Position numbers and translations under genes: made by a program
The notes under the pieces: model-generated
What the model was told of the DNA's origin: nothing
The model's database searches: none
The model's input: only the letters and a program-made list of their open reading frames with translations
Shown: one piece after another, positions 36,622-58,306 of the stretch
Position numbering within the stretch: the stretch's first letter is position 1
How the letters are laid out: every line of letters begins with the position of its first letter
Source of the DNA: an uncultured Actinomycetes bacterium
GTDB taxonomy: Bacteria; Actinomycetota; Acidimicrobiia; Spongiisociales; DATADW01
Assembly (NCBI GenBank): GCA_963733905.1
Contig: CAVTEU010000003.1
Coordinates: forward strand, 910 to 64,909
Direction: 5' to 3'
DNA: 64,000 bases

Positions 36622-36643
36622 TCGTCCGGACATCGTTACGGAC
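36622..36643. promoter_or_regulatory. related element CGTCCGGACATCGTTACGGACG (inverted repeat CGTCCG/CGGACG flanking a CGTTACG core) 44-65 nt upstream of the gene starting at 36578
   Basis: It shares the 12-mer catcgttacgga (rc tccgtaacgatg) with the 39029 element. Confidence 0.35.
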
Positions 36644-37416: not shown

Positions 37417-37786
37417 CGCTTTCTCCTTCCAGGCTCATCTCGAGTTCGAGAGTGTGATGGCGATCTGTGGTGTGGACCCGCAGGTCGTCGACCATGCTGC
37501 GGATCAGGAACAGGCCCCAACCACGCGGCGTCTGCAATCCCTCCAGCTTTGCCTCGAGGTCGGGGGTCTCCGGGTCGGGGACCTCACGTCCGCCGCCCTG
37601 GTCGACGATGCGGACCTTCACCGCCCCGACGTTGGCGCACACCTCGATCTCGACCGGCTTGTCCGGCTCGTTGCCGTTGCCGTGCTCGATGGCATTCATG
37701 GTCGCCTCGGCTACGGCCGTCTTCAGTCGCTCCATGCGACCGGGCTCCATACCGAGCGGGCTCACCCACTCGGCGACCCGGTCCAT
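37397..37786 (-). CDS. anti-sigma regulatory factor (RsbW/SpoIIAB-like Ser protein kinase, HATPase_c)
   Basis: MERLKTAVAEATMNAIEHGN...VEIEVCANVGAVKVRIVDQGGG...RGWGLFLIRSMVDDL. Confidence 0.8.
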   Translation of the reverse strand: MDRVAEWVSPLGMEPGRMERLKTAVAEATMNAIEHGNGNEPDKPVEIEVCANVGAVKVRIVDQGGGREVPDPETPDLEAKLEGLQTPRGWGLFLIRSMVDDLRVHTTDRHHTLELEMSLEGESDAGERL

Positions 37787-37796
37787 GGCGACCCTT

Positions 37797-39028: not shown

Positions 39029-39047
39029 CGTGACGGCATCGTTACGG
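39029..39047. promoter_or_regulatory. CGTGACGG-N3-CGTTACGG element 25-45 nt upstream of the GAF-PP2C phosphatase gene start
   Basis: cgtgacggcatcgttacgg. A third related copy (cgtccggacatcgttacggacg) is at 36622-36643, upstream of the 36578 gene. Confidence 0.4.
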
Positions 39048-39470: not shown

Positions 39471-40644
39471 TCAGCCACCCTCCCCGCGCATCCAGAGACG
39501 GACGGTCGCCGGGCGGAGCGTCTGGCCGACGACGCTGGAGAGATCGTCCGTGAGTCCGTCGAGATCGACCTCGCTACGCAGCCGGGAGGCGAACTCGTCG
39601 ACAACTCGACCTGCGTCGTACCGGGACCGATCAAAGCGACGGTCGATGAAGCTTTGGACCTTGCGCCGAACCGGGGTGAACAAGGCTGCCGCCGCCAGCG
39701 TGGCACCGGCCACCGCCAACGGATTGTCTGCGACCGACAACCGCACCCAGGGCCACGGCGAACCCGGCATAGACCGCCACCAGCACCGCGGCCACGATCG
39801 CATATGAGACGGTGCGGCTGATGAGCCGGTCGATGTCATAGAGGCGGTAACGGAGGATCGCGATGGCGACCGCTATCGGGAAGCCGAGCCCGGCAACTAG
39901 CCAAGGGACCAGCCCGACCAGGTCGCCCTCGAAACCCAACAATTCGGAAACGAGCATGAAGACCAAACCGAGCAGCGCCGCCACCAGAGCCAAGGCGACC
40001 CACTTCAGCTGGCCGCGCTCCACGCCGGACGCCTTTCGGTACCGCCCGATCAGCGACAGGGCACCGAGGACGATCACCACGACCGTGGATCACCACGGCG
40101 ACTGGTACGACCGACTCCAACCAAGGCGCTTGGTCTATGCCCATCGGGTTGTCGCCCACACCCGAAGGGGTCACGATCGTGGGTTTGAAGAACGAGTGCC
40201 AGGGCGAAGACAACGAGAGCGGCGTAGCCGACTGACACCACCGGTCTCCATCTCGGCCCGGGCAGATGACCATCCGGGAAGATAGAACGTCGCCGGGAAG
40301 GCGATGAGGCCGAAGGCGGGAGGCACCAGAATCGCACCGACGAGGGCGACCCACCCTGCCCACGATGCGGTCTGCACCGGGAACCACACCGATTCGGCGA
40401 TGCTCTGCAGGTTGACCCCCAGCCCGAGCGCGGTGACACCCGCCAGCCAGCACCATCCCAACGGATGGTCGGGTCGGCGAGCAGCCAGCAGCAACCCGAC
40501 GATCGGGAATCCCATGAAGGCGGACGCCCAAATCACGTCATCGACGCTGAAGCCGGCGCCCGAGCTGACCACGATGCCGAGGAACCACGAGGCGATTGCG
40601 ACGACGAACAACAAACCGGCCGCCCACGGCGCCCACCTTCTCAT
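39471..40644 (-). CDS. array paralog P13 (most downstream): polytopic membrane protein with conserved C-terminal cytoplasmic domain; at least 2 apparent frameshifts
   Basis: N-terminus MRRWAPWAAGLLFVVAIASWFLGIVV (tail of ORF 40171..42723). Middle YRKASGVERGQLKWVALALV...AILRYRLYDIDRLISRTVSYAIVAAVLVAVYAG (39631..40080). C-terminus DNPLAVAGATLAAAALFTPVRRKVQSFIDRRFDRSRYDAGRVVDEF..RLRSEVDLDGLTDDLSSVVGQTLRPATVRLWMRGEGG (39471..39839). Confidence 0.7.
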
Positions 40645-40658
40645 GGGCTTTACATCGG

Positions 40659-41799
40659 TCACAGTGCGGTTCCCTTGAGCCAGAGAGAGACCGCCGCTGG
40701 CCGCAACGTCTTGTTGACGACTGCGGTGAGGTCGGTCGAAAGCCCCTCGAGATCGATGTCGTCCCTGAGCCGGGCGGAGAACGCCGCCGCCACCACGGAT
40801 GCGTCGTATCCGGCGCGGTCGAACCTCCTGTCCACCCACGCCTGCACCCTTCGGCGCACCGGGTTGAACAGGGCGGCTGCCGCCAGCGTCGCACCGGCAA
40901 CGGCGAGCGAGTTGGCCTCCCCGATCAGGGCACCCAGTGCCGCAGCACCGGCGAAATAGACGGCGGTCAGAACCACGGCGACGAAGGCGTAGGTCACGGT
41001 CCGGGAGACGATCCGGTCGATCTCGAAGAGCCGGTACCGGGTGATGGCGACCCCGATCGCCACCGGGATGGCGAGAAGCGAAGCTGACGAAAGCACCGAA
41101 CGCATCGACTCGAGATCGAGGAACAGGTCGAGGACGATGACCACCAAGCTGAGTGCAGCCGCCCACAGCAGCCAGATGATCTGGGCCCGCATCCGCAGCC
41201 GACGACCGACGGAGCCTGAGGAGGAGCGAGGCCGAACACGCCAGGAGCGCCGGGAACACGATGAGCGCCATCCCGTCGAGGAGGTCGTACTCGGGCGCTG
41301 AGTCGAGCCCCGTCACCAGGGCCTGCGAGGAGAGCGGCCACAGCCGGGGGACCCCCACCACGAGGGCCAGCGCGAACCAGGCGACCAGGAACCACGCCAC
41401 CCAGCGCCATCCCCGACCGGCCGGTTCGCCGGTCGGGAAGATCAGCAGCAACAAGAGCAACGCGCAGATGCTGACCACCCACCCCCAAGAGCCATACCAG
41501 GCGATCAGATGCTCCAACGGCCATGCTGTGGCGGAAGCCAGCGATGAGAGGACGTAGACCTGCCCCATCGACGTCAGGGTCTGCGCCACGCCGGCCACGA
41601 TGCAGAGCACACCGATACGGTTACCCGGGCGGTGGGCGAGGATGATCGCCCCCACCACGGCGAACGCCGGCCAGGGAAGAGCATCGCCCAGCGGCCGGAG
41701 ATCGGTGAGGGTGGCCGACCGGTCGACCATGAAAGCGACGATGGCGACCCAAGCCACCGCAAAGCCGGCGGCCACTCCCAACCACACTCGCCGTCTCAT
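40659..41799 (-). CDS. array paralog P12; one apparent frameshift about 41200
   Basis: ATG 41799 overlaps the P11 stop (ATGA). MRRRVWLGVAAGFAVAWVAIVAF...LLLLLIFPTGEPAGRGWRWVAWFLV..., then 40659..41192: ...AIPVAIGVAITRYRLFEIDRIVSRTV...NSLAVAGATLAAAALFNPVRRRVQAWVDRRFDRAGYDAS...DIDLEGLSTDLTAVVNKTLRPAAVSLWLKGTAL. Confidence 0.75.
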
Positions 41800-42949
41800 C
41801 GCGCTTCCTCGCGCAGCCACAGGGCGACGCTTGCCGGCCGCAGGGTGCTGCCGACAACCGCGGTGAGATCGGTGGTGAGACCGTCGAGATCGACCTCGTC
41901 CCGCAGGCGGGTGCCGAAGTTGTCGACGACCCTTCCTGCGTCGTACCGCTGTCGATCGAAGCGGCGGTCGACGAATCCCTGCACTCGGCGCCGCACCGGT
42001 TGGAACAAGGCAGCTGCCGCCAAGGTGGAGGCGGCAACAGCGAGGGGGTCGTTTGAGCCGAGAAGCGCCTGGAGCCCGAGTACGCAGCCGACGTACACGC
42101 CGGCGAGAAACACGGTCACCATTCCGTAGGTGAGGGTGCGTCGAATCACCCGGTCGAAGTCGTAGAGGCGGTAGCGCAGCACGGCAACGGCGATCGAGGC
42201 GACCAACATCAACACAAATAGCGTGAAGACCACGTTGGCGACCACGAAGTAGCCGAGTTCGTAGAGCACGAGGTTGAGGGCCATCACGGTCACCGAAGCA
42301 GCCAGGGCACCGGCGAACACCTTGATCTGCTGGTGCTCGGTCCCCGTAGATCGGCGGTATCGCTGCACCGCCCCGAACAGTGCCGCGCCAACCGCCACCA
42401 ACACCATCACCATGCCCAGCACCGCGGCAGGCTCGAAGAGCGATGACAGTTCGGGAGCGCTGATGGGAAGGTCGATGGTGGTGGGAGGGGTGACGGTGTC
42501 CAGCGTCACCGACGGTACGAAGGCGTTCCCGAAGACGACCAGCCCCAGCCCGGTCAGCGCCACCGGGGCACCCACCGATAGCGGGCGGAAGGCAGTCTGC
42601 CGTCGGGGAAGAAGAGCGGAAGGAATACGAGCAGCAGGACCAGTGAGGCCGCCCACTGCCAGGTCCCGAGCCATGCACCCCATCCCGCCATCGGTCCTCC
42701 GGCTGCAGCAACGCCCTCACCAATCACGCCAAGTGTGAAGGTGAGGCCGAAACCGGCGAGTATCAAGCCCACCGGGTTCTCAGGGAGCCGCCAGACCAGA
42801 TAGGCGCCGGTCACGGTGGGCGAGGCGATGGCCAAAAGCGCCATGACGTCGACGAGCCACCGTCACTCTGGACCGCCTGCGTCTGCCCATAGATGAGGAC
42901 GGTGAGGCTCGCCAGACGCAATGAGGACGCCGAGCCAACGGCGGATCAC
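41796..42949 (-). CDS. array paralog P11; at least 1 apparent frameshift near the N-terminus
   Basis: GTG 42949 overlaps the P10 stop (GTGA): MIRRWLGVLIASGEPH.... 42554..42844 gives ...VLLLVFLPLFFPDGRLPSARYRWVP. 41796..42683 gives ...QRYRRSTGTEHQQIKVF...AVLRYRLYDFDRVIRRTLTY...DPLAVAASTLAAAALFQPVRRRVQGFVDRRFDRQRYDAGRVVDNF...SVALWLREEAR. Confidence 0.7.
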
Positions 42950-44138
42950 GATCGGTTCCCCTCAGCCACAACGACACCGTGACCGGTCGGAGTGTCTGCG
43001 CCGACCACCGCGGTGAGGTCGGTGGTGAGCCCGTCGAGGTCCACCTCTTGGCGCAGCCTCGATGAGAGAGTCGTCCACCACACGCTCGGCGTCGTATCGG
43101 GACCTGTCGAATCGGCGCTCGACGAAGCGCTGCACCCGGCGCCGCACCGGTTGGAACAGGGCGGCTGCCGCCAAGGTGGAAGCGGCAACGGCGAGGGGGT
43201 CGTTTGAGCCGAGAAGCCCCTGCAATCCAAGGACCGAGCCCACGTAGACGCCCGCCAGGACGACCGACACCAGACCGTATGTCACGGTACGGCGGATCAC
43301 AAGACCAAAGTCGTAAAGGCGATAACGGAGAACGGCAACCGCGATCGAAGTGACCAGTGTGACGACCACCACGCGCGAGACACGATGTTGGCAAGGATCT
43401 CGAAACCCGGACTTCGTAGAGGACCAGGTTGAGCAAGACGCCGACGAGGCCAACGACGAGAGCGCCGGCGAAGACCTTGATCTGCTGACGTTCGATCCCG
43501 GATCGACCGACGGAATCGCCCGACTGCCCCGACGAGCGCCGCGATCACGCGATATGAGCATGAGACCCATTCCGACCAATGCGGCCGGGTCGAAGAGCGA
43601 TGTCAGATTGCGGAGCGCTGATCGGAAGAGAGACAACGATCTCAGAAGAGCCGGATGAGCCACCTCGGCCAGTTGGGCTCGCAAGTGAGGCGTTCAGGCC
43701 GAAGACGAACCAATGCCAGCGTCCGGTAAGTGCTATCGGTGGGACCCATCGGAAACGTCCGACGAGGGGATACCGGGCCGGTCGGGGAAGAGCAGCGGAA
43801 GGAAGATCAGAAGGAGCGCCATGGAAAGGGCCCATTCCCAGGTCCCGATGCCAGGCTCCCCAGCCCGCCAAGAGGGCCACCGGTCTGGGCAGGATGTCTT
43901 CCCCGATGACCCCGACGGTGAATGCGAAGTCCGAAACCAGCGAGAATCCACCCCACAGGATTGGCCGGGGAGCCGCCACGACCAGATAAGCACCTGATGC
44001 CGCTTGGAGAGGCGAACGCCAGGAGCCCCAGGATATCCAGGAGCCAGTTCTCGACCTGGGGACTTTGCGTCTGCCCATAGACGATGACGACTGAGGCTGG
44101 CGAGCCCCATAACGACGCCGAGACCAACGGCGGATCAT
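42946..44138 (-). CDS. array paralog P10; several apparent frameshifts
   Basis: ATG 44138 (MIRRW...) overlaps the P9 stop. Fragments 43733..44110 (...LLLIFLPLLFPDRPG), 42962..43684 (...AVLRYRLYDFGLVIRRTVTYGLVSVVLAGVYVG...PLAVAASTLAAAALFQPVRRRVQRFVERRFDRSRYDAERVVDD) and 42946..43230 (...RLRQEVDLDGLTTDLTAVVG...). Confidence 0.6.
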
Positions 44139-45284
44139 AGTTCCCGTTCCCCTCAGCCAAAGCGACACCGTGACGGGTCGGAGCGTCTGGCTGACAACTG
44201 CGGTGAGATCGGTGGTAAGGCCGTCGAGATCCACCTCTTGACGTAGCCTCGAGGAGAAGTCGTCCACCACCCGGCCGGCGTCGTAGCGGGATCGATCGAA
44301 TCGGCGCTCGACGAACGCCTGCACCCGGCGGCGAAGAGGGGTGAACAACGCCGCTGCGGCCAGCGTGGCGCCGGCAACTGCCAGCGGGTTTCCCCGACCG
44401 ACAAGCGCCCCCAGGGCGAGGGCAGATCCGGCATACACAGCCAACCAGGACCGCCGCCACGACCGCGTATGACACGGTGCGGCTGATCAGCTTGTCGATG
44501 TCGTAGAGCCGGTAGCGGAGGATGGCAACACCGATGGCGGCTGGGATGGCGTTGAGTGCGATGAAGACGAGCGACACATCCAGGATGACGCTCTCGGGGA
44601 CCACCTGGGTGGTTACCAGGATCACGATCACGAAGACCGATCGCCGTCATCAGCCATGGGTACTGGAGCCGCTCCACTCCGCTGCTGGCCCGCCACCTCC
44701 GTACCAGGCTGCCCAGGGCGACCAGGAGGAGTAGCGGGATCAGGAAGAACCCCTGGTCGAGCATGAACGCCGAGAAGCCGCGAGAGCCCCGGTCTAGGGC
44801 CAGCGGGCTCACCAGACCGGTGATCTCCTTGGGAGCGGGGCTGATGAGCTCGGCGAAAACCACCGCCCCCCAGACGACCAGAAGCGCTCGGCTCAGGAAC
44901 CGGTCGAACCCGGTGGCGGGCGTACCGTGCGGAAACAGCACCGGGATGAGGGCGAGCGCCAACGAATGCCGAGTAGCCGAGAATCGAGCTGAGCATCTCG
45001 ACCCAGACGCTGACGAGGTCGGTCATTCCCCCATCGAGCAGCGCCTCGAGGAAGAAGGTGAGGCTCCAGGCCAGCCCGATGAAAAGCAGGAGCCGCCCCA
45101 TCCTGTGCCCCGGCCTCTTCCACAGGATGAAGCGCACCCATGGTCGCGAATCCCACCCAGCTGAGAAGCCACCAACTGTCGGGCAACGTGATCGCCCCGA
45201 TGATGAGCCCGGCGAGCGCAAGCCGAAGGCGAGCGCCAGCCCGAGCCCGTGCACGAATCGCCGCGTCGCCTGGAGCAGGCTCAT
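44135..45284 (-). CDS. array paralog P9; several apparent frameshifts
   Basis: ATG 45284 overlaps the P8 stop (ATGA): MSLLQATRRFVHGLGLALAFGL.... 44893..45186 gives ...WWLLSWVGFATMGAL.... 43545..44444 gives ...PLAVAGATLAAAALFTPLRRRVQAFVERRFDRSRYDAGRVVDDFSSRLRQEVDLDGLTTDLTAVVSQTLRPVTVSLWLRGTGT. An alternative-frame stop tga overlaps the next ATG. Confidence 0.6.
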
Positions 45285-46470
45285 TCGTCTTCCCGGAGCC
45301 AGAGCGACAACGTCGTCGGGTGGAGGGTGCTGCCCACTACCCCGGTGAGATCGGTGGTGAGCCCCCGAAGGTCCGACCTCTTCGCGGAGTCTCGAGGCAA
45401 AGCCGTCGACCACGCGGGCAGCGTCATAGCGGGAGCGGTTGAATCGTCGATCGACAAACGACTGAACCCGACGTCGCACCGGGTTGAACAACGCCGCCGC
45501 CGCCAGAGTGGCACCCGCTACCGCCAGCGGATTGCCCCGTCCCACCAGGGATCCGAGAGCCAGGATGGAACCGGCGTACACCGCTACCAGGACGGCAGCG
45601 ATGACCGCGTAGGAAACGGTCCTGCTGATCAGCCGATCAATCTCGTAGAGGCGGTAGCGGAAGATGGCCACGCCGATGGCGATGGGCAACAGGCTGATGG
45701 CCACGGCGAAGGGGACGTCCGTTTCTACCGAGAGATCTGCCACCGACTGGAGGAGGTCCTCGGTTAGCGGTATCAGCGCGGTGACAACGGCGGCAGTCGT
45801 GAACCACTTCAGCTGTTGCCGTTCGTCGCCTCGGGAACGCCGGTAACGCACCACCACCGAGGCCGCCGCAGCGAGGATCAACGCAGCCAGCAGGATGAAG
45901 AGCACGTTGCCGATGGCGCTTGCCTCCACATCGGGCATGCCGGCAACCCCGATGGGATTGGGCAGCGAGAAATCGGGCTCGCCGAGCGTCGGCGAGAGGG
46001 CGGCCATGGCGGTTGTCAAACCCGTGATCAGCGATCCCCAACCAGAGCACCGGTCGCCACCGTGGCGACGCCGGCCTGCCGTTCGGGAAGAGGAATGGAG
46101 TGAAGAAGAGCACAAGTGCAAGCGTCGGGTACCAGTACCACTCGGCCAGCCACGCCGCCGGTATCAATCCAGGTGCATCTCTCGACAGCTCTTCCAATGC
46201 GTAGACGGCGTATTCGAACGCAAAGGCGCCCGTCGTCACCAGCAATGCGACAGACGAGAGGATCCAACCCATGACGTTGCCGGGGCGCCGGAGAACGATT
46301 AGAACCCCGACCGCCATGTAGGCGGTGAACGCCAGGAGCAGGGCGATACTTCCTACCGGGTCGTCTTCGACCTGACCGCTCCGAGCGTGGAGCACCTCGA
46401 TCAGGACGGCGCTGGCCAGATAGACGATGACCATGGCTGCGACGATGAGGCGTGGCCCGAGGCTTCTCAT
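45281..46470 (-). CDS. array paralog P8; several apparent frameshifts
   Basis: ATG 46470 overlaps the P7 stop: MRSLGPRLIVAAMVIVYLASAVLIEV...FLFPNGRPASPRWRPVLWLG (in ORF 45637..47292). 44628..46121 gives ...RYRRSRGDERQQLKWFTTAAV...AIFRYRLYEIDRLISRTVSYAVIAAVLVAVYAG...NPLAVAGATLAAAALFNPVRRRVQSFVDRRFNRSRYDAARVVDGFASRLREEV. 45281..45514 gives ...DLRGLTTDLTGVVGSTLHPTTLSLWLREDE. Confidence 0.65.
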
Positions 46471-47722
46471 CCAGCCCTGCTTTCCTCGGCTCCTACGCCG
46501 TGGCGCACCCAGATCGACAAGGTCGCCGGATGCAGGGTGTTGCTCACCACTCCGGTGAGATCGCTCGTGAGGCCAGCCAGGTCGACCTGGTGGCGGAGAC
46601 GAGTCGAGAAAGCCTCCACCACCCGTGCCGCGTCGTAGCGGGAGCGGTTGAAACGGCGGTCCACGAAGCCCTGCACCCAGCGCCGCACCGGGTTGAAGAG
46701 GGCGGCCACTGCCAATGTGGAGCCCGCCACGACCAGCTCGCTCTCGGACCCGATCAGTGCCGGTAGCCCGAGCACACCGGCCAAATAGACCACCGCAAGG
46801 AGAGCCGTGACCACCGCGTAGGTGACGGTGCGGCGGACGATCACGTCGATGTCCCACAAACGGTATCGCAGGATCGCCAGACCCATCGAGAGAGGGATGA
46901 TGGCCAGCGAGCCCGCGATCAGGGTCTCGCCGACAATGGTTGCGAATATGGACCCGGCTTCGATCACGGGAGTCAGCTCCACGGCGAGAATCAGCAGAAT
47001 GAACAGAGCCAGGCCAGTCGTTACCGAGAGCACCACCCACTTTGTCTGCTGTCGTTGCACCCGGTCCGAGGTGCTGCGATATCGGTATACCTGGGCGACG
47101 ATGCCCGTGACGACCAGGAGGTTGAACAGGTTGTCGTTGATGACCGTTGGAAGGACGTTGACTTCGGGAAGCAGGCTCTCGTCGAACTGGTACAAGACCC
47201 AGATGGGCGCCAGCCACAGCGTCCAGCGCGGTACGAAGCGGCCGGTGGGGAACATCCAGAGCACGAGCAACAGCCCGGCCCCGCCCAGCCACTGAAGAGT
47301 TCGGGTCACCAACTCAAGCCAAATCGGCACGCCGGACGCGATCAGCTGGAACGTCGCCGATCCGAACGCGGTCAGCCCGAATGCGACCAGCACCCAGCGG
47401 TGAAGCTGGCGAACCAGTCGTCCTTGCGACGTGTCAACAGCACCAGTCCCACCACGAGATACGGGAGTGCAACGAGGACGTCGCGTCCCGTTGCAAGGGC
47501 GGCGTAGGCCTCGGGGGAGGCACCCATCGCCGTCCACTCCTCGAACTGAGCCTCGGTGAAGCCCCAGTTCTCGCACTCCTCGGTGCCTTCCACCGTGGTG
47601 AGGTCTGGGTCCACGGTGCACGGCTCGGCGTAGGCCCGGTAGGCGTAAGGGAGCGAGACGACGAAAAGGGCGACACTCGCCACGACCACCGCCAGGGCGA
47701 TGGGGTAGACAAACCGTCTCAC
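46467..47722 (-). CDS. array paralog P7; carries a unique Cys-containing extracytoplasmic insert after TM1; at least 1 apparent frameshift
   Basis: GTG 47722 overlaps the P6 stop (GTGA): VRRFVYPIALAVVVASVALFVVSLPYAYRAYAEPCTVDPDLTTVEGTEECENWGFTEAQFEEWTAMGASPEAY... (tail of 47372..48025). 46467..47621 gives ...LWMFPTGRFVPRWTLWLAPI...YRYRSTSDRVQRQQTKWVVLSV...LAILRYRLWDIDVIVRRTVTYAVV...LVVAGSTLAVAALFNPVRRWVQGFVDRRFNRSRYDAARVVEAFSTRLRHQVDLAGLTSDLTGVVSNTLHPATLSIWVRHGV. Confidence 0.7.
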
Positions 47723-48960
47723 GTCTCCGCCTCCCGGACCCAAAGCGACATCGTGGCCGGGCGGAGAGTCTCCTCGACTACACCGGTCAGGTCGGCTCGC
47801 AAGCCGTCGAGGTCGGCCTCGGCGCGCAGGCGAGAAGAGAACTGCTCCACCACCTGCTGGGCGTCGTAGCGTTCCCGGTCGAAGCGGCGATCTACCCATC
47901 CCTGCACCCGGCGCCGTACCGGGTTGAACAGCGCCGCCGCCGCCAGGGTGGCCCCGGCCACCGCCAAGGGATCTGTCGCGCCCGATGATCGCGCCCAAGG
48001 CGGTGACGCCACCCAGATAGACCAATGCCAGCAGTGCGGCCAGGGCCGCGTAGCTGACCGTGCGGCGGACGATGTCGATCTATCTCATAGAGGCGGTAGC
48101 GGATCACAGCCAACGGCGATGGCCACCGGGATAGCGGCGATCGAGATGACAAAGAGGAGGTCCAGCCACGCCGGCGTTTCCTCTCCACCGGAGAATGCGA
48201 ACATGGAGGAGTAGACGACGGCGAACATGCCGACGGCGTAAGCGAGCCACTTGATCTGCTGGCGCTCCTCCGCCCGGGCGCGGCGATAGCGGACGATGAC
48301 CGCCGACGCGCTCCCCAGAGCCAGGATCACCAACCCCACCCCCCACACAGGCGAGAAGCCCCCCTCCCAGAATTCATCGGTGATGAACCCGATCGGATTG
48401 GGCACCGACCAGATGGTTGTTTCCCCAACTACCAGCTCGAGCTCTGCGGAGAAGACGGTGAGGAGCGTGAAGACCAGGAGCATCCCCGCCTCCAACGCCA
48501 CCAGCCACCGCCAGCGTGGGGTGGGAACCGTGCCGGTTGGGAACACCAGGGGCAGATGGAAGATCGGAAAGATGAACAGAACCCAGGACCAGCCCTGAAA
48601 CCAGATCAGTAGCCAGACGCCGAGGTCAACGGTCGGCGGAGCCGTCATGGACGACAGTGGGATGGCGGTCAGACCCGACAACGAGGCTCCCAGGGCCCAG
48701 ACCAGTAGCAGCCAACCGATCGGGTTGCGGGGCCGGGAGGCGAGGATGAGCATCGCCGCCACCGCGGTGATTAGCGGAATGAGCACCAAGACCGGATCCC
48801 CATCCAATCGGTCCAACTCACCCTGGCGGATCGTGATGAAGATGTAGGACACCGAGATGGCGAGAACGATCACAGCGATGCCCCAGGCCAGCGGTCGCCG
48901 CCAGCCGAAGCCCACCACCTCCTCTTCCGCGGGCAGTGCCCCTCGGTCCGGGCCGGCCAT
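47719..48960 (-). CDS. array paralog P6; about 2 apparent frameshifts near the C-terminus
   Basis: ATG 48960 (TGATG overlap with the P5 stop): MAGPDRGALPAEEEVVGFGWRRPLAWGIAVIVLAISV...FPTGTVPTPRWRWLVAL...VRYRRARAEERQQIKWLAYAV...AAIPVAIAV (48085..48960). 47719..48012 gives ...DPLAVAGATLAAAALFNPVRRRVQGWVDRRFDRERYDAQQVVEQFSSRLRAEADLDGLRADLTGVVEETLRPATMSLWVREAET. Confidence 0.7.
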
Positions 48961-50135
48961 CAGGCGTCACTCCTTGTCGATGCCAGCCACACCCCGGTGA
49001 TGGTGGGACGGAGCGTGCGGTTCACCACTCCTTCCAGGTCGGCGGTGAGTCCATCCAGTTCCACCTGGTCGCGCAGCCGCGCCGAGAACCCGGCCACGAC
49101 CTGCTCACTGTCGTAGCGCGCCCTGTCGAAGCGTCGGTCCACCCAACGCCTGGACCCGCCGTCGCACCGGGCTGAACAGCGCCGCGGCCGCCAGGGTGGC
49201 CCCCGCCACAGCCAAAGGATTGTCGCGACCGACGATGGCGCCGAGCGCAGCTATCCCCCCGAGATACGCCGCGGCGACGACGACGGCCACGATCGTGTAG
49301 GCGAGGGTCGCGACTGACGAGCCGATCGATCTCGTACAGACCAAGGCGCGTCACGGCGACGAACAGCGTGCCGCCAACCAGGATGACGAAGCCGATGTTG
49401 ATGAGAGAGGAGAGCAGCGGGGGTACGTCGCCGGGGATGGTCACGGCGAAGAAGATGACCGCGACGACGCCGACCCATGCAAGCCACTTGATCTGTTGGC
49501 GCTCCACCGTACCTGCGCGTCGAAAGCGAAAAATGAGCGAGATGACGCCGATCAGCGAGGCGACGGGTATGGCGTTGAAGACGATCGGTGCGAGCGCTTC
49601 TGCGATGGGCAGTGAAGCCGGCGATACCCAGCGGGTTGTTCAAACCAGGCAATAGCTCTTCGTCCACCGGTCCCGGGGCAAAGGCGCTGATGAGAAAGGT
49701 GAGTGCTACCAGCGTCCAGAGCAGCCACAACAGCGGCCGCCATCGGGGAGAAGCGGGCTGGCCGTCTGGATAGAGCGCCAGGAGGAAGGGGATCGAGTAG
49801 GGCCCCGGGATCCACACCCAGAGGACGCACCACCCCGCCACTGCGGTCACCCGATGATCGGGCCCCAAATTGGTAAGGGCAAAGTGGGCGATGTCCGAGA
49901 GCAGTGCTTCCAGCGGGAAGACCAGGCCGGGGATGATGGCCAGCCAAGCCACTGCGTTGGTCGGCTGACGGCGGGCGATGAGATAGCCGAACGTCCCGAG
50001 GATGACGAATGCGAACAGCTCGACCGCTTCGAGCACTGGGCTGGCACCAACCGATGGCGCGTACGCGCCGAGCACAGCGGCTACCGACCAGGAGACGATG
50101 CTCGCCAGCCAGACGACCAGGGCTGCCCGTCTCAT
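48960..50135 (-). CDS. array paralog P5; several apparent frameshifts
   Basis: ATG about 50135 overlaps the P4 stop (ATGA): MRRAALVVWLASIVSWSVAAVLGAYAP...LALYPDGQPASPRWRPLLWLLW (second half of ORF 49251..51263). 49022..49507 gives ...ERQQIKWLAWVGVVAV...TRLGLYEIDRLVSR. 48960..49142 gives VDRRFDRARYDSEQVVAGFSARLRDQVELDGLTADLEGVVNRTLRPTITGVWLASTRSDA. Confidence 0.6.
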
Positions 50136-51312
50136 CGAGCTCCCTCCCCGACAAGCACCAGCGACACCGTCGCCGGGCGCAACGTGGCCCCCACGACGGC
50201 GGAGAGGTCGGTGGTGAGCCCTCCAGATCGATCTCGTCGCGCAGCCGTCCCGAGAAGGCGGAGACCACCTGGGTGGTGTCATACCGGGTTCGATCGAATC
50301 GCCGATCGACCCACCCTGGACCCGCCGGCGGACGGGAGTGAACAGCGCCGCCGCTGCCAATGTGGCCCCCGCCACAGCCAAGGGGTTGTCGCTCCCCACG
50401 ACCGCCCCCAATGCTGCCACTCCTCCCAGATAAACCGCGGCGAGCACCGCAGCAACCAATCCGTAGCTCACCGTCCGGCTGATCAATCGGTCGATGTCGT
50501 ACAGCCGGTACCGGAAGATGGCGATCGCCATTGCCGCGGGGAGCAACACACCCGCAATCGCCTCGTTTATCTGGTCGAGCGCGCCAGGAAGGTCGATGGC
50601 CCAGGCTGGGAGACTGAACACAGCCGCCAAGGCGAGCCACTTGATCTGCCGTCGCTCGATCCCGGAGGCTCTTCGGTAACGGAGCAGCACAGACAGGACC
50701 CCGAGCGGCACTCCGGCAAAGAGCACTACCAAGAGCACGCTCCCCGCCGGCTCGACAGCTTGAGCGGATGTCTCGCTCACCACGCCGCTCCACGTGGCCG
50801 GAAGGGTCCCGCTCTCACCTGGGAGCATCCATGTCCCTGCCGCCATCAGCCCCACGGCGATGGAAGTCGTCCAGGCCACGATTCGCCAGAACTTCGAGGA
50901 AAGCCTGCCGTCGGGAAAGAGGAGCAAGACGAGACCTATCAGCCATAGCGAGAAGAGGAAGCCGTAGTCGCCGATCAGGCCGAGCAGCCCGGTCGAGGGC
51001 GGTCCTGTCTGCCCCGAGGCGAGCAGGAGAACCCCGTAGTCACGGCACGCCATTTGCATTATCTGGGCAAAACCCAGACCCAACCAGGCCCATCCGTACC
51101 TTTTGTCTGGGAAACGGGTTACCAGCAGCCAGCCGACCGCAGCAATGGCGAGCCCGCTCGGGTACGAGGAAAGGCGGGTAGCCCAGGGGGCGACGTCGGC
51201 CACTGCCGGGAAGTTCCGACTAGCCAAGGCCGACCAGATACCCAAAACCGCCATGGCCACCAATCGACAGGGTCAGGATCGTGGCGCTCCCTGCGATCAG
51301 CCGGCGTCTCAT
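50132..51312 (-). CDS. array paralog P4; at least 2 apparent frameshifts
   Basis: ATG about 51312 overlaps the P3 stop (ATGA): MRRRLIAGSATIL..., then first half of ORF 49251..51263: ...LLLFPDGRLSSKFWRIVAWT...LRYRRASGIERRQIKWLALAAV...AIFRYRLYDIDRLISRTVSYGLVAAVLAAVYLGG...NPLAVAGATLAAAALFTPVRRRVQ. The C-terminal domain is in another frame. Confidence 0.65.
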
Positions 51313-52468
51313 ACCCGCTCCCCCACCAGGACCAGCGAGACTCCGGCCGGTCGCAGGGTCTCGCCGACAACGCGGTGAGGTCGCCGGTGAGACCATCGAG
51401 GTCGACCTCGTCGCGCAGCCTCGCCGAGAATTGCTCCACGACCGTGTGGGCGTCGTACCTGGTCCGGTCGAACCGACGGTCGACCCATAGCTGGACCCGG
51501 CGCCGCACCGGGTTGAACAGCGCCGCCGCGGCCAGGGTTGCGCCTGCGACCGCCAGCGGGTTGGTGCTTCCCACGACGGCGCCCACCGCGGCGGCAGCGG
51601 CCAGGTAGACCCCGGCGAGCACGACGGCCACCAGCGTGTAACCGGCCGTCCGCCTGATCAACCGGTCGATGTCGTACAGGCGGTAGCGGAAGACGGCCAC
51701 CGCGATCGAGACCGGAAGGAGGACGAGGCCAAGAAAGAGAAACTCGGCGACCACGCTTCCCTGGGCGGTGAACTCGGCAACGATTCCCGCCGCCACCACG
51801 GCGACGGCGAGGAGGAACCACTTGACCTGGGCCCGCTCGATCCCGTGCGAGCGGCGGAACCTCAATACGAGCGAAACGAGCGCCGCAACCGCCCCGAAGA
51901 GCATGAGCGGCACCCCCACCGTGTTCAACACGGCGAGGATCGGGTTGGTCGGCTGTAGCTCGTCGCCGGTGAAGAGTTGGACCGGTGACAGCTTCAGAGC
52001 GGCAGGCAGCCCGGAAACCGCGAGGCATACGAACCCGGTGACACCGATCCATGCGATCCAACGCCAGCGGGGTGTCGGAGGTCGGCCGTCGGGGAACAAG
52101 AGCGGGAGCAGGCAGGTCAGAACGGTGACCCAGCCGAAGAATCCGACGCCGCCAAGCCAGTAGAAGATCTGCGGCCAAGGCGCCGCAACACCGGCGGTGG
52201 CCAAGGCCTCCATCACCTCGTCGGCCAAGACGTTGAGCGAGGCCAGAAACCCGACAAGCGCAACCAGCCACCCAACCGGCTCCTCGGGGCGGCGGGCGAC
52301 GAGAACGGCTCCGGTCAGCGTGAACGAGACCAGCATCCAGCAAAAGACCAGCACCTCGGAGGAGAAACCCTCATCCCCGGTTGCGAAGAGGACAAGAGCC
52401 GAGACACCGCTGACGACCGAGATCGCCGCCATCACCAGGCCCCAACGGCGGAGCACGATGGGGCTCAT
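51309..52468 (-). CDS. array paralog P3; nearly intact, one apparent frameshift about 51360
   Basis: ATG 52468 overlaps the P2 stop (ATGA). ORF 51119..52468: MSPIVLRRWGLVMAAISVVSGVSALVLF...LLFPDGRPPTPRWRWIAWIGV...LRFRRSHGIERAQVKWFLLAV...AVFRYRLYDIDRLIRRTAGYTLVAVVLAGVYLAA...NPLAVAGATLAAAALFNPVRRRVQLWVDRRFDRTRYDAHTVVEQFSARLRDEVDLDGLTGDLTA. The true C-terminus ...VVGETLRPAGVSLVLVGERV is in 51309..52343. Confidence 0.8.
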
Positions 52469-53613
52469 CGTCCCGACTCCCCTATCAGTACAACGGCGGC
52501 GGAAACCGGGCGGAGCGTCACCGTCACCACGCCGGTCAGGTCCGTGGTGAGCCCGTCGAGGTCGACCTCGTCGCGCAGTCGAGCCGAGAAGCCCTCCACG
52601 ACTTGCTCGGTGTCATACCGTGCCCGGTCGAAGCGGTGATCGACCCATGCCTGGACGCGGCGCCTCACCGGGCTGAACAGTGCCGCGGCGGCCAACGTGG
52701 CGCCGGCCACGGCGAGTGGGCTGGTTCGCCCCACCAAAGCCCCGATGGCGGCGACGCCGCCGAGATACATCGCCGCAAGGAGCACGGCAACAAGTGTGTA
52801 GCTCACCGTCCGTCGGACCAACTGGCCAATGTCGTACAAGCGGTAGCGGAGCACTGCTATCCCGATCGCCACCGGGAAGACGGACACTGCGAACACGAAC
52901 GAGGAATTCCCAATCCAATCCGGTACCTCGAGACCCAAGATGGGCGCAACCTCCTGGGCGACGAGCGTGACCGCGATCATTGCCACCGCGTACGTCAGCC
53001 AGGCGACCTGTTTGCGCTCGACGCCTGTAGAGCGCCGGAACCTGACCACGAGACTCGCCGCGGCCAGGACCATGCACGCCAGCAGGACGACGATCACGGC
53101 TGTGCCGATTCCCGAGTCCTCGGCTCCGGGGGCTCCGGCGACTCCGAGCGGGTTGGGGACCCCGCCTGCCACGGTGGGCTGGATCACTACGAGCACCGCG
53201 TTCACCACTACGGCGCCCACGGCCACCCACGCAACCCAGCCCCAGCGGGGAGTCGGGGGGCGCCCATTAGGAAAGAGGAGGGGGAGGAACACGAAGGTCC
53301 CGGCGAGGGTGGCGAAGAACATCGAATCGGAAAACAGCGAACCGAGCACCAACGACCACTCGGGCACATTGCTCCGATCGGCGAGGATTCCAGTCAACGC
53401 GCTCGACACCGCGATCAACCCGATGCCAACCATGACCCATCCCACGCGGTTACCCCCGGTGCGCGAAACGATCACCGCCCCAACGAGCGCCATGGCCAGG
53501 TACGGGAAGGAGAGCGAGTCGAAGGTGTGCTGAGCGATTTGGTTAACTACGGCGCCGGCCAGGATCAAGACGAAGAGCGACCACGCCAGCACTGACTGGG
53601 TGCGCGGGCTCAT
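52465..53613 (-). CDS. array paralog P2; apparently intact (383 aa)
   Basis: Second half of ORF 52465..54780 from MSPRTQSVLAWSLFVLILAGAVV to ...DTEQVVEGFSARLRDEVDLDGLTTDLTGVVTVTLRPVSAAVVLIGESGR. ATG 53613 overlaps the P1 stop (ATGA). It has the full set of family motifs (LLFPNGRPPTPRWGWVAWV; VRFRRSTGVERKQVAWLTYAV; VLRYRLYDIGQLVRRTVSYTLV; PLAVAGATLAAAALFSPVRRRVQAWVDHRFDRARYD). Confidence 0.85.
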   Translation of the reverse strand: MSPRTQSVLAWSLFVLILAGAVVNQIAQHTFDSLSFPYLAMALVGAVIVSRTGGNRVGWVMVGIGLIAVSSALTGILADRSNVPEWSLVLGSLFSDSMFFATLAGTFVFLPLLFPNGRPPTPRWGWVAWVAVGAVVVNAVLVVIQPTVAGGVPNPLGVAGAPGAEDSGIGTAVIVVLLACMVLAAASLVVRFRRSTGVERKQVAWLTYAVAMIAVTLVAQEVAPILGLEVPDWIGNSSFVFAVSVFPVAIGIAVLRYRLYDIGQLVRRTVSYTLVAVLLAAMYLGGVAAIGALVGRTSPLAVAGATLAAAALFSPVRRRVQAWVDHRFDRARYDTEQVVEGFSARLRDEVDLDGLTTDLTGVVTVTLRPVSAAVVLIGESGR

Positions 53614-54780
53614 CGTTCCTCCAGGAGCCACAGCGACGCCGAGTTCGGACGGAGGGTGACGTTGACCACGCGGCGTCAGTTCGGAGTTGAGTCCAATCAG
53701 ATCGACCTCGTTGCGAAGGCTGGCGGTGAACCCCTCCACCACCATCTGGGCGTCGTACCTCGACCGGGAGAAGCGCCGGTCAACCCACCCCTGCACCCGC
53801 CGTCGCACCGGTGTGAACAGCGCGGCAGCGGCGAGCGTGGCCGCGGCAACCGCAAGCGGGTTCTCGCTTCCCACCAGGGCGCCCAAGGCGGCGACGCCAC
53901 CCAGGTACACCGCAGCCAGCGCCACCACCACAACGGCGTAGGTGACGGTGCGGTTGACGATCCGGTCTATCTCGTACAGCCGATAGCGGAAGACGGCGAT
54001 CCCGATCGCGACAGGGAGCGAGAGATAGGCCGCGCCGTAGAGGATGCTTTCGAGGGTCTCGTTGAGCTCGAGCAGGTCGAGGGCGGTGACCACCAGGATG
54101 AACACAGCCGCGGCGTAGAGCAGCCACCCGATCTGTCGGCGCTCCAGCCCGTCAGAGCGGATGAATCGCACGATGAGAGCGATTACCGAGACCACGGCGA
54201 GAACGAGGAATCCGTCCAGGAGAAGGGGACCAATCGCCAGGCCCACCTCGACCAGCGCCGGTATGCCGATCGGGTTGACGAAGCCGGGTTCCACTTGCCC
54301 GAAGGCGCTCAGGACCACGAGCAGCCCGGCGGCGGCTGCGGTTACACGCACCACCCAGCGCCAGCCGGTGCTTGGCGGCCGGCCAGTCGGATACAGCAGG
54401 AACAGCAGTGGGATCATGGCCAGCCCGGCGTTCCAACCCCAGACGGCAAACCACTGGCCGATCGCGGCCCCCGGGCCACCGGTCATCGCCCAAGTCGCCC
54501 CTGCGGCGGTCAGTGATACAACGAGCCCGTCGAGCAACATGAGCCAACCCACCGGGTTCCCCCGCCGCAGCACGATCAGGGCCCCCACGGTGCTGAGCGC
54601 AACGAAGGCGATCCCAATGGTGATCCCCTCGACGTCTGGGGACTCGCCCGACGACTGCAAGACCACAGCGACGACAAAGCTGGCTACGGCCAGGGCGAGG
54701 CAGACCATCGCCAGTAGCCGAAGCGGGCGCGACGGGATAGCCCACTCCCTCTCCGTCATCTCTTCACCGCGCCGTACCAC
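53610..54780 (-). CDS. array paralog P1 (first gene of the operon); one apparent frameshift near the C-terminus
   Basis: GTG 54780 with AGGAGA SD (alternative ATG 54759). First half of ORF 52465..54780: ...LLFLLYPTGRPPSTGWRWVV...VRFIRSDGLERRQIGWLLYAA...AVFRYRLYEIDRIVNRTVTYAVV...NPLAVAAATLAAAALFTPVRRRVQGWVDRRFSRSRYDAQMVVEGFTASLRNEVDLIGLNSELT. The true end ...VVNVTLRPNSASLWLLEER is in the adjacent frame. Confidence 0.8.
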
Positions 54781-54821
54781 TCGATCTCCTGGCTGCGGTC
54801 AGCGTCAGGGTCCCCTACTCC

Positions 54822-54840
54822 CGTGACGGTGCCGTTACGA
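54822..54840. promoter_or_regulatory. CGTGACGG-N3-CGTTACG element 42-60 nt upstream of the array's first gene (half-sites CGTNACG in 11-nt phasing)
   Basis: cgtgacggtgccgttacga, matching cgtgacggcatcgttacgg at 39029-39047 (15/19). A related cgttacg...cgtcacg pair lies at 55056-55100 beside the divergent regulator's start. Confidence 0.4.
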
Positions 54841-55074
54841 CAATCAGGCCCAAGACCGACCGGCCCGGGCCCGTGATCGTTGAAATGTCGTGCAGAGAGC
54901 GCCGGACTCTTGCGTTGGTACTTGAGCCGAGGCGCTCCCAAGGGATCATCGGCATCGGGGACGAAGCAAATGAAGGGCCTAGTTGCCGCCACTGCCGGGA
55001 TCAGCCCAGGTCGACCGACCGCCGCAATGATCACGCCCCGAAATATCGGGCCATCGTTACGATCTCGGCTCGGG

Positions 55075-57918
55075 ATGGGAGATCGTCACGCCGCCGGCCA
55101 AGACTCCGTTGCCCTGCGGGTGCATCTGCTGGGACCGCCCGACATCCTGGTCGACGGCCACCCCATGAAGGTCGACACGCGGAAGGCGGTGGCTCTGCTC
55201 GCTTACCTCGCCGTCACCGGCACCCCGCACAACCGCGATGTCCTTGCGACCCTGCTCTGGCCGGGGGACGATCCTGACCGGGCGAGGGGCAGCCTGCGCC
55301 GCACCCTCTCCACCTTGCGGTCGGCGCTAGCCGACCGATGGGTCCGCGCCGACCGGGAGTGGGTCGCGTTCGAGCCGAACAACGAGGTGTTCGTAGACCT
55401 CGATTCCGTCCGGGATCGCATCGCTGATATCGGGGACCACGGCCACCCCGAGCGCGAGGTTTGCGCCCTATGCGTGCCGATCCTGACCTATGCGGCCAAT
55501 CAACACCGTGGCGACTTCCTCGCCGGGTTCTCCCTGCGCGACAGCCCGGATTGGGATGATTGGCAGTCGGCCCAAGCGGAGATGCGCCGACGGACTCTCG
55601 CCGACATACTGGAGCGGCTCGCCATCGGCCAGGCCGCCGCTGGGATGTACCGGCAGGCGATCGACACTGCGGAGCGCTGGCTCTCGCTCGATCCGCTGGA
55701 CGAGGCGGCACACCGTCAATTGATGCTGCTATATGCCTGGGCGGCGGATCGCGCCTCGGCCTTGGAGCAATATCTCAAGGCGGTCCGCATCCTCGACGAA
55801 GAGCTGGGGGTTGCGCCGCTGCCCGAGACCACCGAGCTCAACGACGCCATCCTCGAAGACGACATCCCCCCGGCTCCATCGGCGGGACGACGGGTGATAG
55901 CCGCTCCCGAGAGACCTCGCTTCCCGCTCGGGCCTCCGGTGATTCCGTTGGTGGGGAGAGAATCGGATCTAGCCGTCCTTACCGCGGCCATGCGGTCTGG
56001 TGCGGTCCTCGCCATCGAGGGAGAGGCCGGCATTGGCAAGACAAGGCTCCTCGAAGAGCTCGTCAACAGAATCGACGAACCCGTCGTCGTCCAGGCATAC
56101 GAGGGCGAATCGGGGCTGGCATACGGCTTGATCCATGAGGCGATCGACAAGTGCCCTCCGCGCCGGGGGTGACGAGCGACTCGCCGCGGTCTCGCCCGAT
56201 GCCCTCGGCCAAGCGGCGCGCCTCTTCCCCGACCTCGCGCCTGGGCCACTGCCCCCGCTCGACACCGACGCCGCCGCCGCCCGCACCCGGTTGTTCGACG
56301 GCGTGTGCCGGACCCTCGCCGCTCTCTGCGAGGCAAGTGTGCTGGTGATCGACGACGTGCATTGGGCGGACGAAGCCTCGATCGAACTTCTCTCCTATCT
56401 CATCAGGCGGCTTGACCGGCTTGGGATGACACTCGTGGTCACCTGGCGAACCGAGGAGTTCCCCCCCGGCCACGGGCTGCGGAGGGTGGTGAGTGCCGCC
56501 CACCGTCAGGGCGATGGTGTGCTGATCAAGCTCGACCGGCTCGATGCGTCGGCGGTGGGGCACCTCGCAAGCAGCGGTGCTCGGTGATGACGCCGACCCA
56601 GAGGTCGTGGATGTCGTTTTCGCCGAGACCGAAGGGCTCCCGTTTTTCGTCGTCGAGTACCTCACCTCGATCAAGGAAGGTCGGCCGGAATCTGCTGACG
56701 TGCCCGACCTCCTCGAGTCGAGGCTGGCCGGGCTGAGCGACATCGCGCGACAGGTTGCCTCGGCCGCGGCGGTGATCGGTCGATCCTTCGATGTCGAGTC
56801 TGTTAGGTCCGTGTGCGGGCGGAGCGACGACGAGGTGGTAGCAGCCCTCGAGGAGTTGGTGCAGCACGGTGTGGTGAGGGAGCCGAGCGGTGGTGTCACC
56901 GGTTACGACTTCTCGCACGAACTGCTCAGGCGACATGTGCTCGAATCGACCTCGCTGGCGAGACGACGCCTGCTCCACCAACGGACCGCGGCCGTGCTGG
57001 CAGGACGACATCGCCGCGACCCAGGGGCGATGGCGGCGCAGATCGGCTTCCATCTCGAAGCGGCAGGCAACGACCAGGAGGCGGCGGATCAATACGCCAT
57101 GGCGGCGGGGCGTGCCGCCGCGCTGTACGCCAACCGCGAAGCCCTCGATCTCTACCAGCGGTCGCTGGCATTGGGGAATCGAGACCCGGCGATGCTCCAC
57201 ATCGCTATCGGCGACCTCGAGGCCTTGGCGGGTGCTTACGGGTCGGCGGTCGGCTCGTACCAGACGGCGCTCGCTTTGGGGGGTCCGTCACCACAGGTCG
57301 AGCGGAGGCTCGCTCAGGTCTACTCCTACCTCGGCGCCTGGGAGGTGGCGGAAGCCCACATCCTGGAGGCACAGCGCCAAATGGCCGCCGGACGACCCCG
57401 AACGGATGACGGTGGCGGTGGATCATGCGCTGATCGCCCATCGGAGCGGCGATGACGAGCGTGCTGCGCAACTAGCCGGCGCCGCTTTGGAGGCGGCTGA
57501 CGCCACTGCGGATCCCGGCGGCCGTGCACGGGTCAACAACCTGCTCGGGATCCTCCGCCGGTCGGAGGACCCGGAGGCCGCACTCGACCACCTCGCCACC
57601 GCCCGGAGACTGGCGGCAGAGACGGATGACCCCAGGCTGCTGGCGGGCGTCCTCAACAACCTGGCGCTCGCCTATCTCGCCGAGGGTGAATTCGAGAAGG
57701 GCATCTCTGCGGCGGAGGAGGCGCTCGATGTCTACCAACGGACCGGTGACCGCCACCGGGCGGCGGCGGTCCACAACAATCTCGCCGACCTACTCCACAG
57801 GGCAGGGAGAGGTGAAGAGGCGATGGCCCACCTCAAGGAGGCGGTCGCAATCTTCGCCGAGGTGGGGACCGAGCCGGGAGCCTTCGAGCCGGCGGTGTGG
57901 AAACTCGCCGAGCTCTAA
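55075..57918 (+). CDS. AfsR-like regulator: SARP wHTH plus BTAD, NB-ARC/AAA P-loop ATPase, TPR repeats; at least 3 apparent frameshifts (about 56150, 56570, 56900)
   Basis: 54880..56172 gives RVHLLGPPDILVDGHPMKVDTRKAVALLAYLAV...LRRTLSTLRSAL (OmpR-type wHTH), BTAD (LMLLYAWAADRASALEQYLKAVRILDEELGVAPLPETTELNDAIL) and Walker A GEAGIGKTRLLEEL. The frames 56135..56587, 56544..57455 and 56890..57918 carry TPR-like repeats. The start is uncertain (ATG 55075 or GTG 55120). Confidence 0.7.
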
Positions 57919-58257: not shown

Positions 58258-58306
58258 TCGGTCACCTCCTTGTGGTGCCCTGGCCAGATACCCCCCACCG
58301 GTCCGG

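Follow-up and report, generated by a model that had tools for sequence, protein, structure and literature searches.

The window analysed here, a stretch of 64,000 nucleotides from an uncultured actinobacterium of the Acidimicrobiia (positions 910 to 64,909 of contig CAVTEU010000003.1, GenBank assembly GCA_963733905.1), contains a gene encoding a large SARP-type regulator (55075..57918, +) and, divergent from it, an array of 13 tandem genes encoding a multi-pass membrane protein (39477..54780, -). A preliminary description of this DNA had placed the starts of the two about 300 bp apart and had proposed the regulator as a dedicated activator of the array. The distance from the regulator start (ATG 55075) to the start of the first array gene (GTG 54780) is 294 bp, and the proposal is supported, at the level of sequence comparison, by the conservation of a box of two direct heptamers in front of the array and by the retention of the regulator beside related arrays. 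The same box was found in front of two further genes in the window, a phosphatase gene of partner-switching type and a gene encoding a DUF1990-like protein.

The regulator and the membrane protein array

Translations, Pfam matches and the sequence of an intact ortholog give a regulator of ~947 amino acids once three frame breaks are corrected, with an OmpR-like winged helix-turn-helix, a BTAD, an AAA_16 P-loop ATPase and a TPR region in this order; the stop codon ends at 57918. The ortholog, P0001 from the related contig L001, is 946 amino acids long, 81% identical and carries the same Pfam domains. The OmpR-type winged-helix DNA-binding domain (amino acids 1-105; 55075..55389, +) was assigned by phmmer matches to AfsR (8K60/8JKE) and EmbR (2FEZ), where amino acids 11-391 of the regulator align with AfsR 8K60 and amino acids 14-86 with the DNA-binding domain of EmbR. 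Within it lies a putative recognition helix, ARGSLRRTLSTLR (55282-55320, +), most of whose residues reach a conservation of at least 90% among 111 homologs, in keeping with the conservation of the DNA box. The BTAD follows at amino acids 136-260 (55480..55854, +; PF03704, E = 3.4e-18, and 2.2e-19 in P0001). Just 5' of the Pfam BTAD match a HGHPxxxxCxxC motif (55438-55473, +; amino acids 122-133) is conserved among the 111 homologs, and it could be a metal- or redox-sensing site.

The STAND-type P-loop ATPase AAA_16 (55945..56600, +) is cut by the first frame break and was recovered as PF13191 on both frame pieces; on the intact ortholog the match has an E-value of 1.7e-15. Walker A (GEAGIGKT, 56020-56043, +) and Walker B (VLVIDDVHW, 56339-56365, +) motifs are both present within it. 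Among the Pfam profiles, NB-ARC gave no match to this ATPase, and nSTAND6 and NACHT gave weak, sub-threshold matches only. The C-terminal TPR region (57391..57915, +) is matched by TPR_12 (E = 6.5e-19) as well as TPR_1, TPR_2, TPR_10 and MalT-like TPR. The preliminary description had assigned the protein an AfsR architecture with an NB-ARC-type P-loop. The order of the domains agrees with that assignment, whereas the ATPase matches AAA_16 instead of NB-ARC and orthology to AfsR finds no support, the NCBIfam equivalog model for AfsR (NF053617) scoring 77 bits against a cut-off of 1430. Judged by its domains and model scores, the regulator is a large SARP with an AfsR-like domain order and no AfsR ortholog.

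The neighbouring array comprises 13 copies of a ~390-amino acid protein by family hidden Markov model (HMM) matches, the number given previously, and the copies are orthologous one by one to those of the intact array of L001, although many are frame-broken in this assembly. The first gene has a Shine-Dalgarno sequence AGGAG (54790-54786) in front of its GTG start (54780; feature at 54778..54790, -), and the same start was called in L001. The array itself contains no copy of the box described below, and its 13 genes are therefore probably transcribed as a single operon.

The array proteins belong to a family with more than 3900 clusters of ~380-410-amino acid proteins that Pfam leaves unannotated and that occur in Acidimicrobiia, other Actinomycetota and related groups. 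They do not fall into HisKA_7TM (PF16927): one fused open reading frame (ORF) gave a marginal match (29.8 bits, cut-off 28.6) and the other copies gave none. Neither did Pfam detect a kinase domain in the array proteins, and NCBIfam had no match for them or for the DUF1990-like protein. An AlphaFold2 model (pLDDT 83) predicts about nine transmembrane-like helices, a long helix at the C-terminus and no output domain. Foldseek comparison of the model with the PDB returned only weak matches to generic GPCR- or rhodopsin-like helical bundles (E of at least 0.03, TM-score at most 0.49), and hence no function can be assigned to the protein. Every copy ends in a highly conserved segment of ~90 amino acids, NPLAVAGATLAAAALF-PVRRRVQ-WVDRRF-RSRYDA...DLDGLT (e.g. 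52465-52740, -), which is modelled as one long helix, again with no output domain.

A direct-repeat box in front of three genes

The heptamers of the preliminary description are at the positions it gave for them: CGTGACG at 54822-54828, CGTTACG at 54833-54839, CGTTACG at 55055-55061 and CGTCACG at 55093-55099. The two nearest the array had been called half-sites; they are direct repeats and no palindromic half-sites, and on the strand of the array they read CGTAACG-gcac-CGTCACG (54822..54839, -), two heptamers with an 11-bp period. This element, the predicted SARP box of the array promoter, is invariant in the five related contigs L001-L005 and fits the position weight matrix (PWM) built for the family. 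The promoter as a whole reads CGTAACG gcac CGTCACG ggagtaggg GACCCT (54839-54807, -), in which the -10-like hexamer GACCCT (54807..54812, -; A at position 2, T at position 6) is 9 bp downstream of the 3' heptamer, at the position of a conserved TAnnnT. Transcription of the array is predicted to start near 54800. Neither a canonical sigma-70 -35/-10 promoter nor a terminator was found in the intergenic region.

Targets of SARPs are direct repeats 11 or 22 bp apart, the 3' repeat being 8 bp from the -10, and the box of AfsR overlaps the -35 (PMC10936776). The sites found here have 11-bp direct repeats, a TAnnnT fixed at +27 to +32 and a spacer within 1 bp of the canonical 8.

In the alignment of the clade, the ~100 nt preceding the array start hardly vary, in contrast to the intergenic and coding DNA around them. 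Conservation of the intergenic motifs in orthologous loci had been named as a check on the regulatory link, and the block with the heptamer pair is indeed nearly invariant in L001-L005, whose regulators are ~78-92% identical to that of the window (tblastn). The box, the -10 and the Shine-Dalgarno sequence account for the conserved core of the ~100-nt block. A structured leader RNA or riboswitch was considered for this block and rejected, as Rfam at E of up to 10 returned only meaningless miRNA and snoRNA matches. Two further stretches of the intergenic region are conserved in the clade and are not accounted for by the box: ~45 nt directly upstream of it (54841-54883, including GGGCCCGGGCC), and a second block, GGATCATCGGCATCGGGGACGAAGCAAATGAAGG (54946-54979, +). 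Neither had an Rfam or promoter match.

Two more copies of the box are present in the window. The second, CGTAACG-atgc-CGTCACG (39029..39046, -), is followed after 9 nt by TAGAAG and is located upstream of a frame-broken gene with GAF, SpoIIE (PP2C) and HATPase_c_2 matches in Pfam (37397..39004, -; ATG 39004, end at ~37397). This gene is followed by one encoding a STAS protein (37060..37434, -; Pfam), and by their domains the two (37060..39004) are a partner-switching-type set. The GAF match of the PP2C protein covers only profile positions 50-133. Homologous GAF-PP2C genes elsewhere bear the same box, also in a metagenome scan. The third copy, CGTAACG-atgt-CCGGACG (36623..36640, -), is followed after 9 nt by TACAAC and precedes the DUF1990-like gene (35843..36578, -), which was identified by homology, starts at ATG 36578 after GGAGGA and is frame-broken near its 5' end. 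Its product is 48% identical to a Rubrobacter tropicus protein with a PF09348 match (locus L082), and homologs preceded by the box were found in seven other loci. The same box at the PP2C and DUF1990-like promoters points to control by the regulator of a small regulon, not of the array alone.

Taken alone, the heptamer CGTWACG occurs in the window at about its chance level (4 copies, 3.4 expected) and shows no enrichment. The composite CGTAACG-N4-CNNNACG has three exact matches there against 0.03 expected, all of them on the reverse strand and in front of genes. In 1.3 Mb of fetched loci, CGTAACG-N8-ACG was found 84 times, compared to ~2 matches expected from Markov-1 simulations. The PWM, built from 82 non-identical sites, showed conservation also at positions that the search pattern had left free: Y at -1, T at +8 and CSGG at +11 to +14. 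Furthermore, a hexamer TAnnnT is found at exactly +27 to +32 of the box (A 0.84, T 0.72 in the 82 sites), giving the full consensus Y-CGTAACG-nT-N2-CSGG-ACG-N9-TAnnnT. A third CGTAACG precedes many of the sites by 12 nt. An ORF starts just downstream in 83 of the 84 sites, and the genes behind them include 34 of the membrane protein family, ~19 GAF-PP2C genes and ~7 DUF1990-like genes, the last two counts being taken from motif grouping.

These loci were partly picked via the array family. The resulting bias is offset by a scan of metagenomes with the box only, in which 68 of 123 matches were upstream of the membrane protein family and 6 upstream of a PP2C gene. In three of the metagenome contigs the regulator start is divergent and at most ~130 nt from the box, and in one further contig it is ~4 kb away. 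Intergenic regions of distant loci share CGTAACG followed by 4 nt and a second heptamer ending in ACG, and the box stands in front of the array family in distant lineages too, among them Rubrobacteraceae, Gaiellaceae, Thermoleophilaceae, Kribbella, Chloroflexia and Anaerolineales.

The sites near the regulator start had a different outcome. The isolated CGTTACG (55055..55061, +), 14-20 nt upstream of the ATG, is conserved in 6/6 clade loci. It more probably overlaps the -10 of the regulator itself; two -10-like hexamers, CATCGT (55052-55057) and TACGAT (55058-55063), coincide with it. We read it as the regulator's own promoter, a possible autoregulatory site, or both. A second heptamer close to the start of the regulator gene was seen in about ten further loci. 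Chloroflexia and other lineages have TAYCGT 6-7 nt ahead of the start codon, a position that suggests a leaderless regulator mRNA, and in many cases a heptamer-like sequence comes next. The CGTCACG previously noted at 55094 does not hold up as a regulatory site: it is coding (codons 7-9), is unconserved outside the clade and is unremarkable, because CGTSACG occurs 15 times in the window.

Association of the regulator with the array across lineages

The divergent arrangement is kept in all six clade loci (the window and L001-L005). The three closest homologs of the regulator are all divergent from the same array and have DUF7218, folK and folB (folB in two of the three) on their other side. In the window this side is occupied by a housekeeping block of DUF7218/Rho_N, folK, folB, folP, folE and ftsH (57976-64000, -), in which the names beyond DUF7218 are taken from the aligned contig L002. 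The same block from DUF7218 to ftsH is present in L002, and its first genes only in L001 and L003. Given the shared fol/ftsH flank, the regulator and the array are a module inserted at the same chromosomal site throughout this clade.

Scanning genomes with the array family yielded 78 loci. In many of them, full-length regulator homologs (36-48% identical over residues 14-945) were found in divergent orientation at 66-700 nt from the first array gene, for example in Kribbella antiqua, Gaiellaceae, Thermoleophilaceae, Chloroflexia, Acidimicrobiia and Thermomicrobiales. Outside the clade of the window, 37 multi-copy runs and 38 single-copy genes could be assessed. The regulator was divergent and less than 1 kb away in 15 of the multi-copy runs, at 1-6.5 kb in 8 and not in view in 14; for the single-copy genes the corresponding numbers were 2, 1 and 35. 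A homolog within 6.5 kb thus accompanies 23/37 multi-copy arrays, compared to 3/38 single genes, and this retention is in line with the link to the array proposed earlier. In reading these numbers it should be kept in mind that many contigs are too short to judge absence of the regulator, and that start codons in distant loci are approximate.

The reverse test, from the regulator side, covered the loci of four distant homologs (L082-L085). In L083 and L084 the regulator is divergent from a cupredoxin gene, three genes encoding proteins of ~370-480 amino acids, a GAF-SpoIIE-HATPase_c_2 gene and STAS genes. The three proteins have almost no Pfam annotation apart from one HisKA_7TM match and are presumed members of the array family. 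In Rubrobacter tropicus (L082), three genes for ~420-amino acid proteins without Pfam matches are located near the regulator homolog, with a DUF1990 gene downstream. The cupredoxin-like gene is the first gene divergent from the regulator in L083 and L084, and an amine oxidase gene comes after the DUF1990 gene in L082 or after an unannotated gene for a 256-amino acid protein in L084. Cupredoxin-like and amine oxidase genes may be further members of the regulon; within the examined part of the window (~32.8-64 kb) none was seen.

Proposed control of the regulon by a SARP-STAND regulator

From the architecture of the regulator and the geometry and distribution of the box we consider it likely, with a probability of about 0.7, that the regulator binds the box, recruits RNA polymerase with the primary sigma factor and in this way, much like AfsR, activates the promoters of the array, the PP2C gene and the DUF1990-like gene. 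Two SARP domains would bind side by side to CGTAACG-N4-CGTCACG (54839-54822, -). The box would take the place of the -35, 9 bp upstream of GACCCT, and the bound regulator would recruit the polymerase as AfsR does at the afsS promoter, so that transcription would start near 54800 and run through the 13 array genes as one operon. The same box would drive the promoters of the GAF-PP2C-anti-sigma-kinase gene, with the STAS gene next to it, and of the DUF1990-like gene. The ATPase and TPR part presumably gates activity upon a signal. Both the physical binding and its effect, activation rather than repression, are what we infer from this comparison. The preliminary description had further seen the array as a regulated accessory module; here a correction applies, the module being widespread and no oddity of this locus.

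Several observations weigh against control by the regulator. The whole case for it is one of comparative inference, and Pfam Trans_reg_C was not detected on the N-terminus of the regulator at E<0.01. At the promoter, the -10 hexamer of the window, GACCCT, is weak, and the spacer between box and -10 is 9 bp against the textbook 8, which is reached only with a register shift of one base. Direct repeats with an 11-bp period are not unique to SARPs; they are also used by other members of the OmpR/PhoB family, for example GlnR, PhoP and MtrA. No regulator is in view at 14/37 multi-copy arrays and at most single genes, one of the four distant homologs (L085) is located in an insertion sequence-rich region that lacks an array, and the regulator of Rubrobacteraceae has a convergent instead of a divergent orientation. 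Six arrays without a visible regulator do have the box, which fits control in trans rather than loss of control. Finally, the regulator gene is frame-broken in the window, and if the breaks are real the protein would be unable to act here.

Another factor could read the box, the SARP being a mere neighbour. The candidates would be a GlnR-, PhoP- or MtrA-like member of the OmpR/PhoB family, or an alternative sigma factor governed by the partner-switching proteins. The stretch GTAAC-N6-GGGAC resembles the published site of GlnR type, gTnAc-n6-GaAAc, and GTAACG is the -35 reported for SigD of Mycobacterium tuberculosis. The regulon also holds a partner-switching set, which usually controls a sigma factor, and many of the box-bearing genes have no SARP gene in view. 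We nevertheless consider this unlikely. The box is 20-130 nt from the start of a divergent regulator gene in many loci of two phyla, and its two to three repeats of 11-12-bp period with a TAnnnT at fixed distance fit an activator working with the primary sigma factor. Moreover, no response regulator or sigma factor gene was consistently present among the called genes of the five module loci with gene tables, the other loci being unscreened. A SigF/SigB- or extracytoplasmic function-type promoter was also tried as a reading of the sites and rejected, the PWM misfitting GTTT-N15-GGGTAT and GGAAC-N16-CGT and showing the fixed TAnnnT instead.

Control by the regulator would be lost at this locus if its gene were a pseudogene. 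The gene is not one continuous ORF in the window; it is read in frames 1, 2, 3 and 1, with changes at ~56150, ~56570 and ~57388. Pairwise DNA alignments attribute each change to an insertion of 1 nt. The first (56149..56151, +) was seen relative to L001, L002 and L003 and in the translations, the second (56569, +) reads GCAAGC for GC-AGC, and the third (57385..57388, +) restores the original frame. Three real frameshifts would leave the array silent or under the control of a paralog, and the local link a relic. None of the insertions is in a long homopolymer, and many array copies are frame-broken too, both of which speak for such a loss. Against it, each of the four frame segments is still 80-82% identical to the ortholog P0001 at the protein level and free of in-frame stops, and the insertions add up to +3 and restore the frame. 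A codon-position HMM also found ~42 same-strand frame switches, distributed evenly along the 64 kb and present among the fol genes right of the regulator as well. Coding signal runs on through each of them, and while some are ordinary gene junctions, many split single genes. Examples are found at 6829, 7028, 7674, 9139, 23258-24177, 31632-32855, 37427-38448, 41211-49314 and 58782-59659.

The related contigs L002, L003 and L004, with names of the 'contig_N' style, have indels of their own at different places (ftsH is split in L002), whereas the short-read contigs L001 and L005 show no frame break. Names of the form 'MFD...contig_N', which the related contigs carry, are those of long-read metagenome-assembled genomes. 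The window behaves like an unpolished long-read assembly, and because similar breaks occur all over it, the three in the regulator gene are most likely assembly errors. We thus regard a pseudogene as improbable, and it would in any case be compatible with the conclusion for the family. The frequent single-base indels make ORF-based annotation of the window unreliable, and ORF lists will under-call its genes.

We consider it barely credible that the heptamers arose by chance in GC-rich DNA and that the position of the regulator beside the array is without regulatory meaning: single CGTWACG heptamers are at chance frequency in the window and CGTSACG is common, but the composite box is enriched 100-fold in the window and 40-fold in related loci, keeps a specific strand and position with respect to gene starts and retrieves the same gene family from an independent collection.

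The closest known counterpart of the regulator is AfsR of Streptomyces coelicolor (8K60, 8JKE), its best sequence match in the PDB, yet a remote one (E about 1e-6). AfsR has the same order of OmpR-type DNA-binding domain, BTAD, P-loop oligomerisation ATPase and TPR, and in its target promoter, too, a pair of 11-bp direct repeats stands in for the -35, equally far from the -10. Measured in 11-bp units beginning with the conserved Y at -1, there are 6 bp between the downstream repeat and the -10, compared to 9 bp when counted from ACG. The afs box has by our estimate the same 6-bp spacing, with the box coordinates taken from PMC10936776 and the -10 placed at the usual -12 to -7. The regulator differs from AfsR in an ATPase that matches AAA_16 and not NB-ARC, in the repeat sequence, here CGTAACG, and in a host range that includes Chloroflexota. 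The targets differ as well, being membrane receptor-like and partner-switching genes here and afsS and antibiotic clusters for AfsR.

SARP-LAL hybrids, for example PimR, SanG and PolR, likewise have an N-terminal SARP fused to a MalT/LAL-type P-loop ATPase and TPR, and PimR is reported to bind heptameric direct repeats with 4-nt spacers. They are cluster-situated regulators of antibiotic biosynthesis in Streptomyces, whereas the regulon described here is conserved across phyla. No biosynthetic genes were seen among the called genes adjoining the regulator in loci with gene tables. EmbR of M. tuberculosis (2FEZ) shares the SARP-type DNA-binding domain (E = 7.6e-5) and the BTAD, ends in an FHA domain where the regulator has the ATPase and TPR, and is controlled by PknH phosphorylation. 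The co-regulated PP2C gene resembles the RsbU-RsbW-RsbV fusions of the Rv1364c type, with a sensor, a PP2C phosphatase, a HATPase_c_2 anti-sigma kinase and a STAS partner. Unlike in Rv1364c, the sensor is a GAF domain and STAS is encoded by a separate gene. In the loci with gene tables, no sigma factor gene was seen among those called.

A literature search for the heptamer returned primer sequences only, and nothing relevant was found on SARPs in Chloroflexi, Rubrobacter or Acidimicrobiia, or on HisKA_7TM together with partner switching. Nor was a description of the module of regulator, box and array found in the papers searched. The regulatory logic is ordinary; what is new is a cis-element shared across phyla and an unexpected, non-biosynthetic regulon. 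We suggest tentatively, and at somewhat less than even odds, that this is an undescribed signalling regulon of Actinomycetota and Chloroflexota in which a SARP-STAND activator drives expandable receptor arrays of up to 13 output-less multi-pass paralogs, one GAF-PP2C-anti-sigma-kinase/STAS set and DUF1990, some loci having cupredoxin and amine oxidase genes close by.

To our knowledge, work on SARPs has dealt almost exclusively with their switching of antibiotic clusters of Streptomyces. The conserved box and the conserved surroundings of its gene connect the large SARP of the window with a regulon of another, non-biosynthetic kind, which consists of partner-switching proteins and uncharacterised membrane receptors and is frequent among uncultured Actinomycetota and Chloroflexota of soils. 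The box is a testable cis-element that permits prediction of the regulon across thousands of metagenomic contigs, and the module is also present in the cultured Kribbella antiqua and Rubrobacter tropicus. If the suggestion of a signalling regulon is correct, SARPs would not be confined to the antibiotic pathways of actinomycetes but would also serve soil Terrabacteria as the master switch of a sensory system that is widespread among them, in which the receptor paralogs possibly feed into a single phosphatase.

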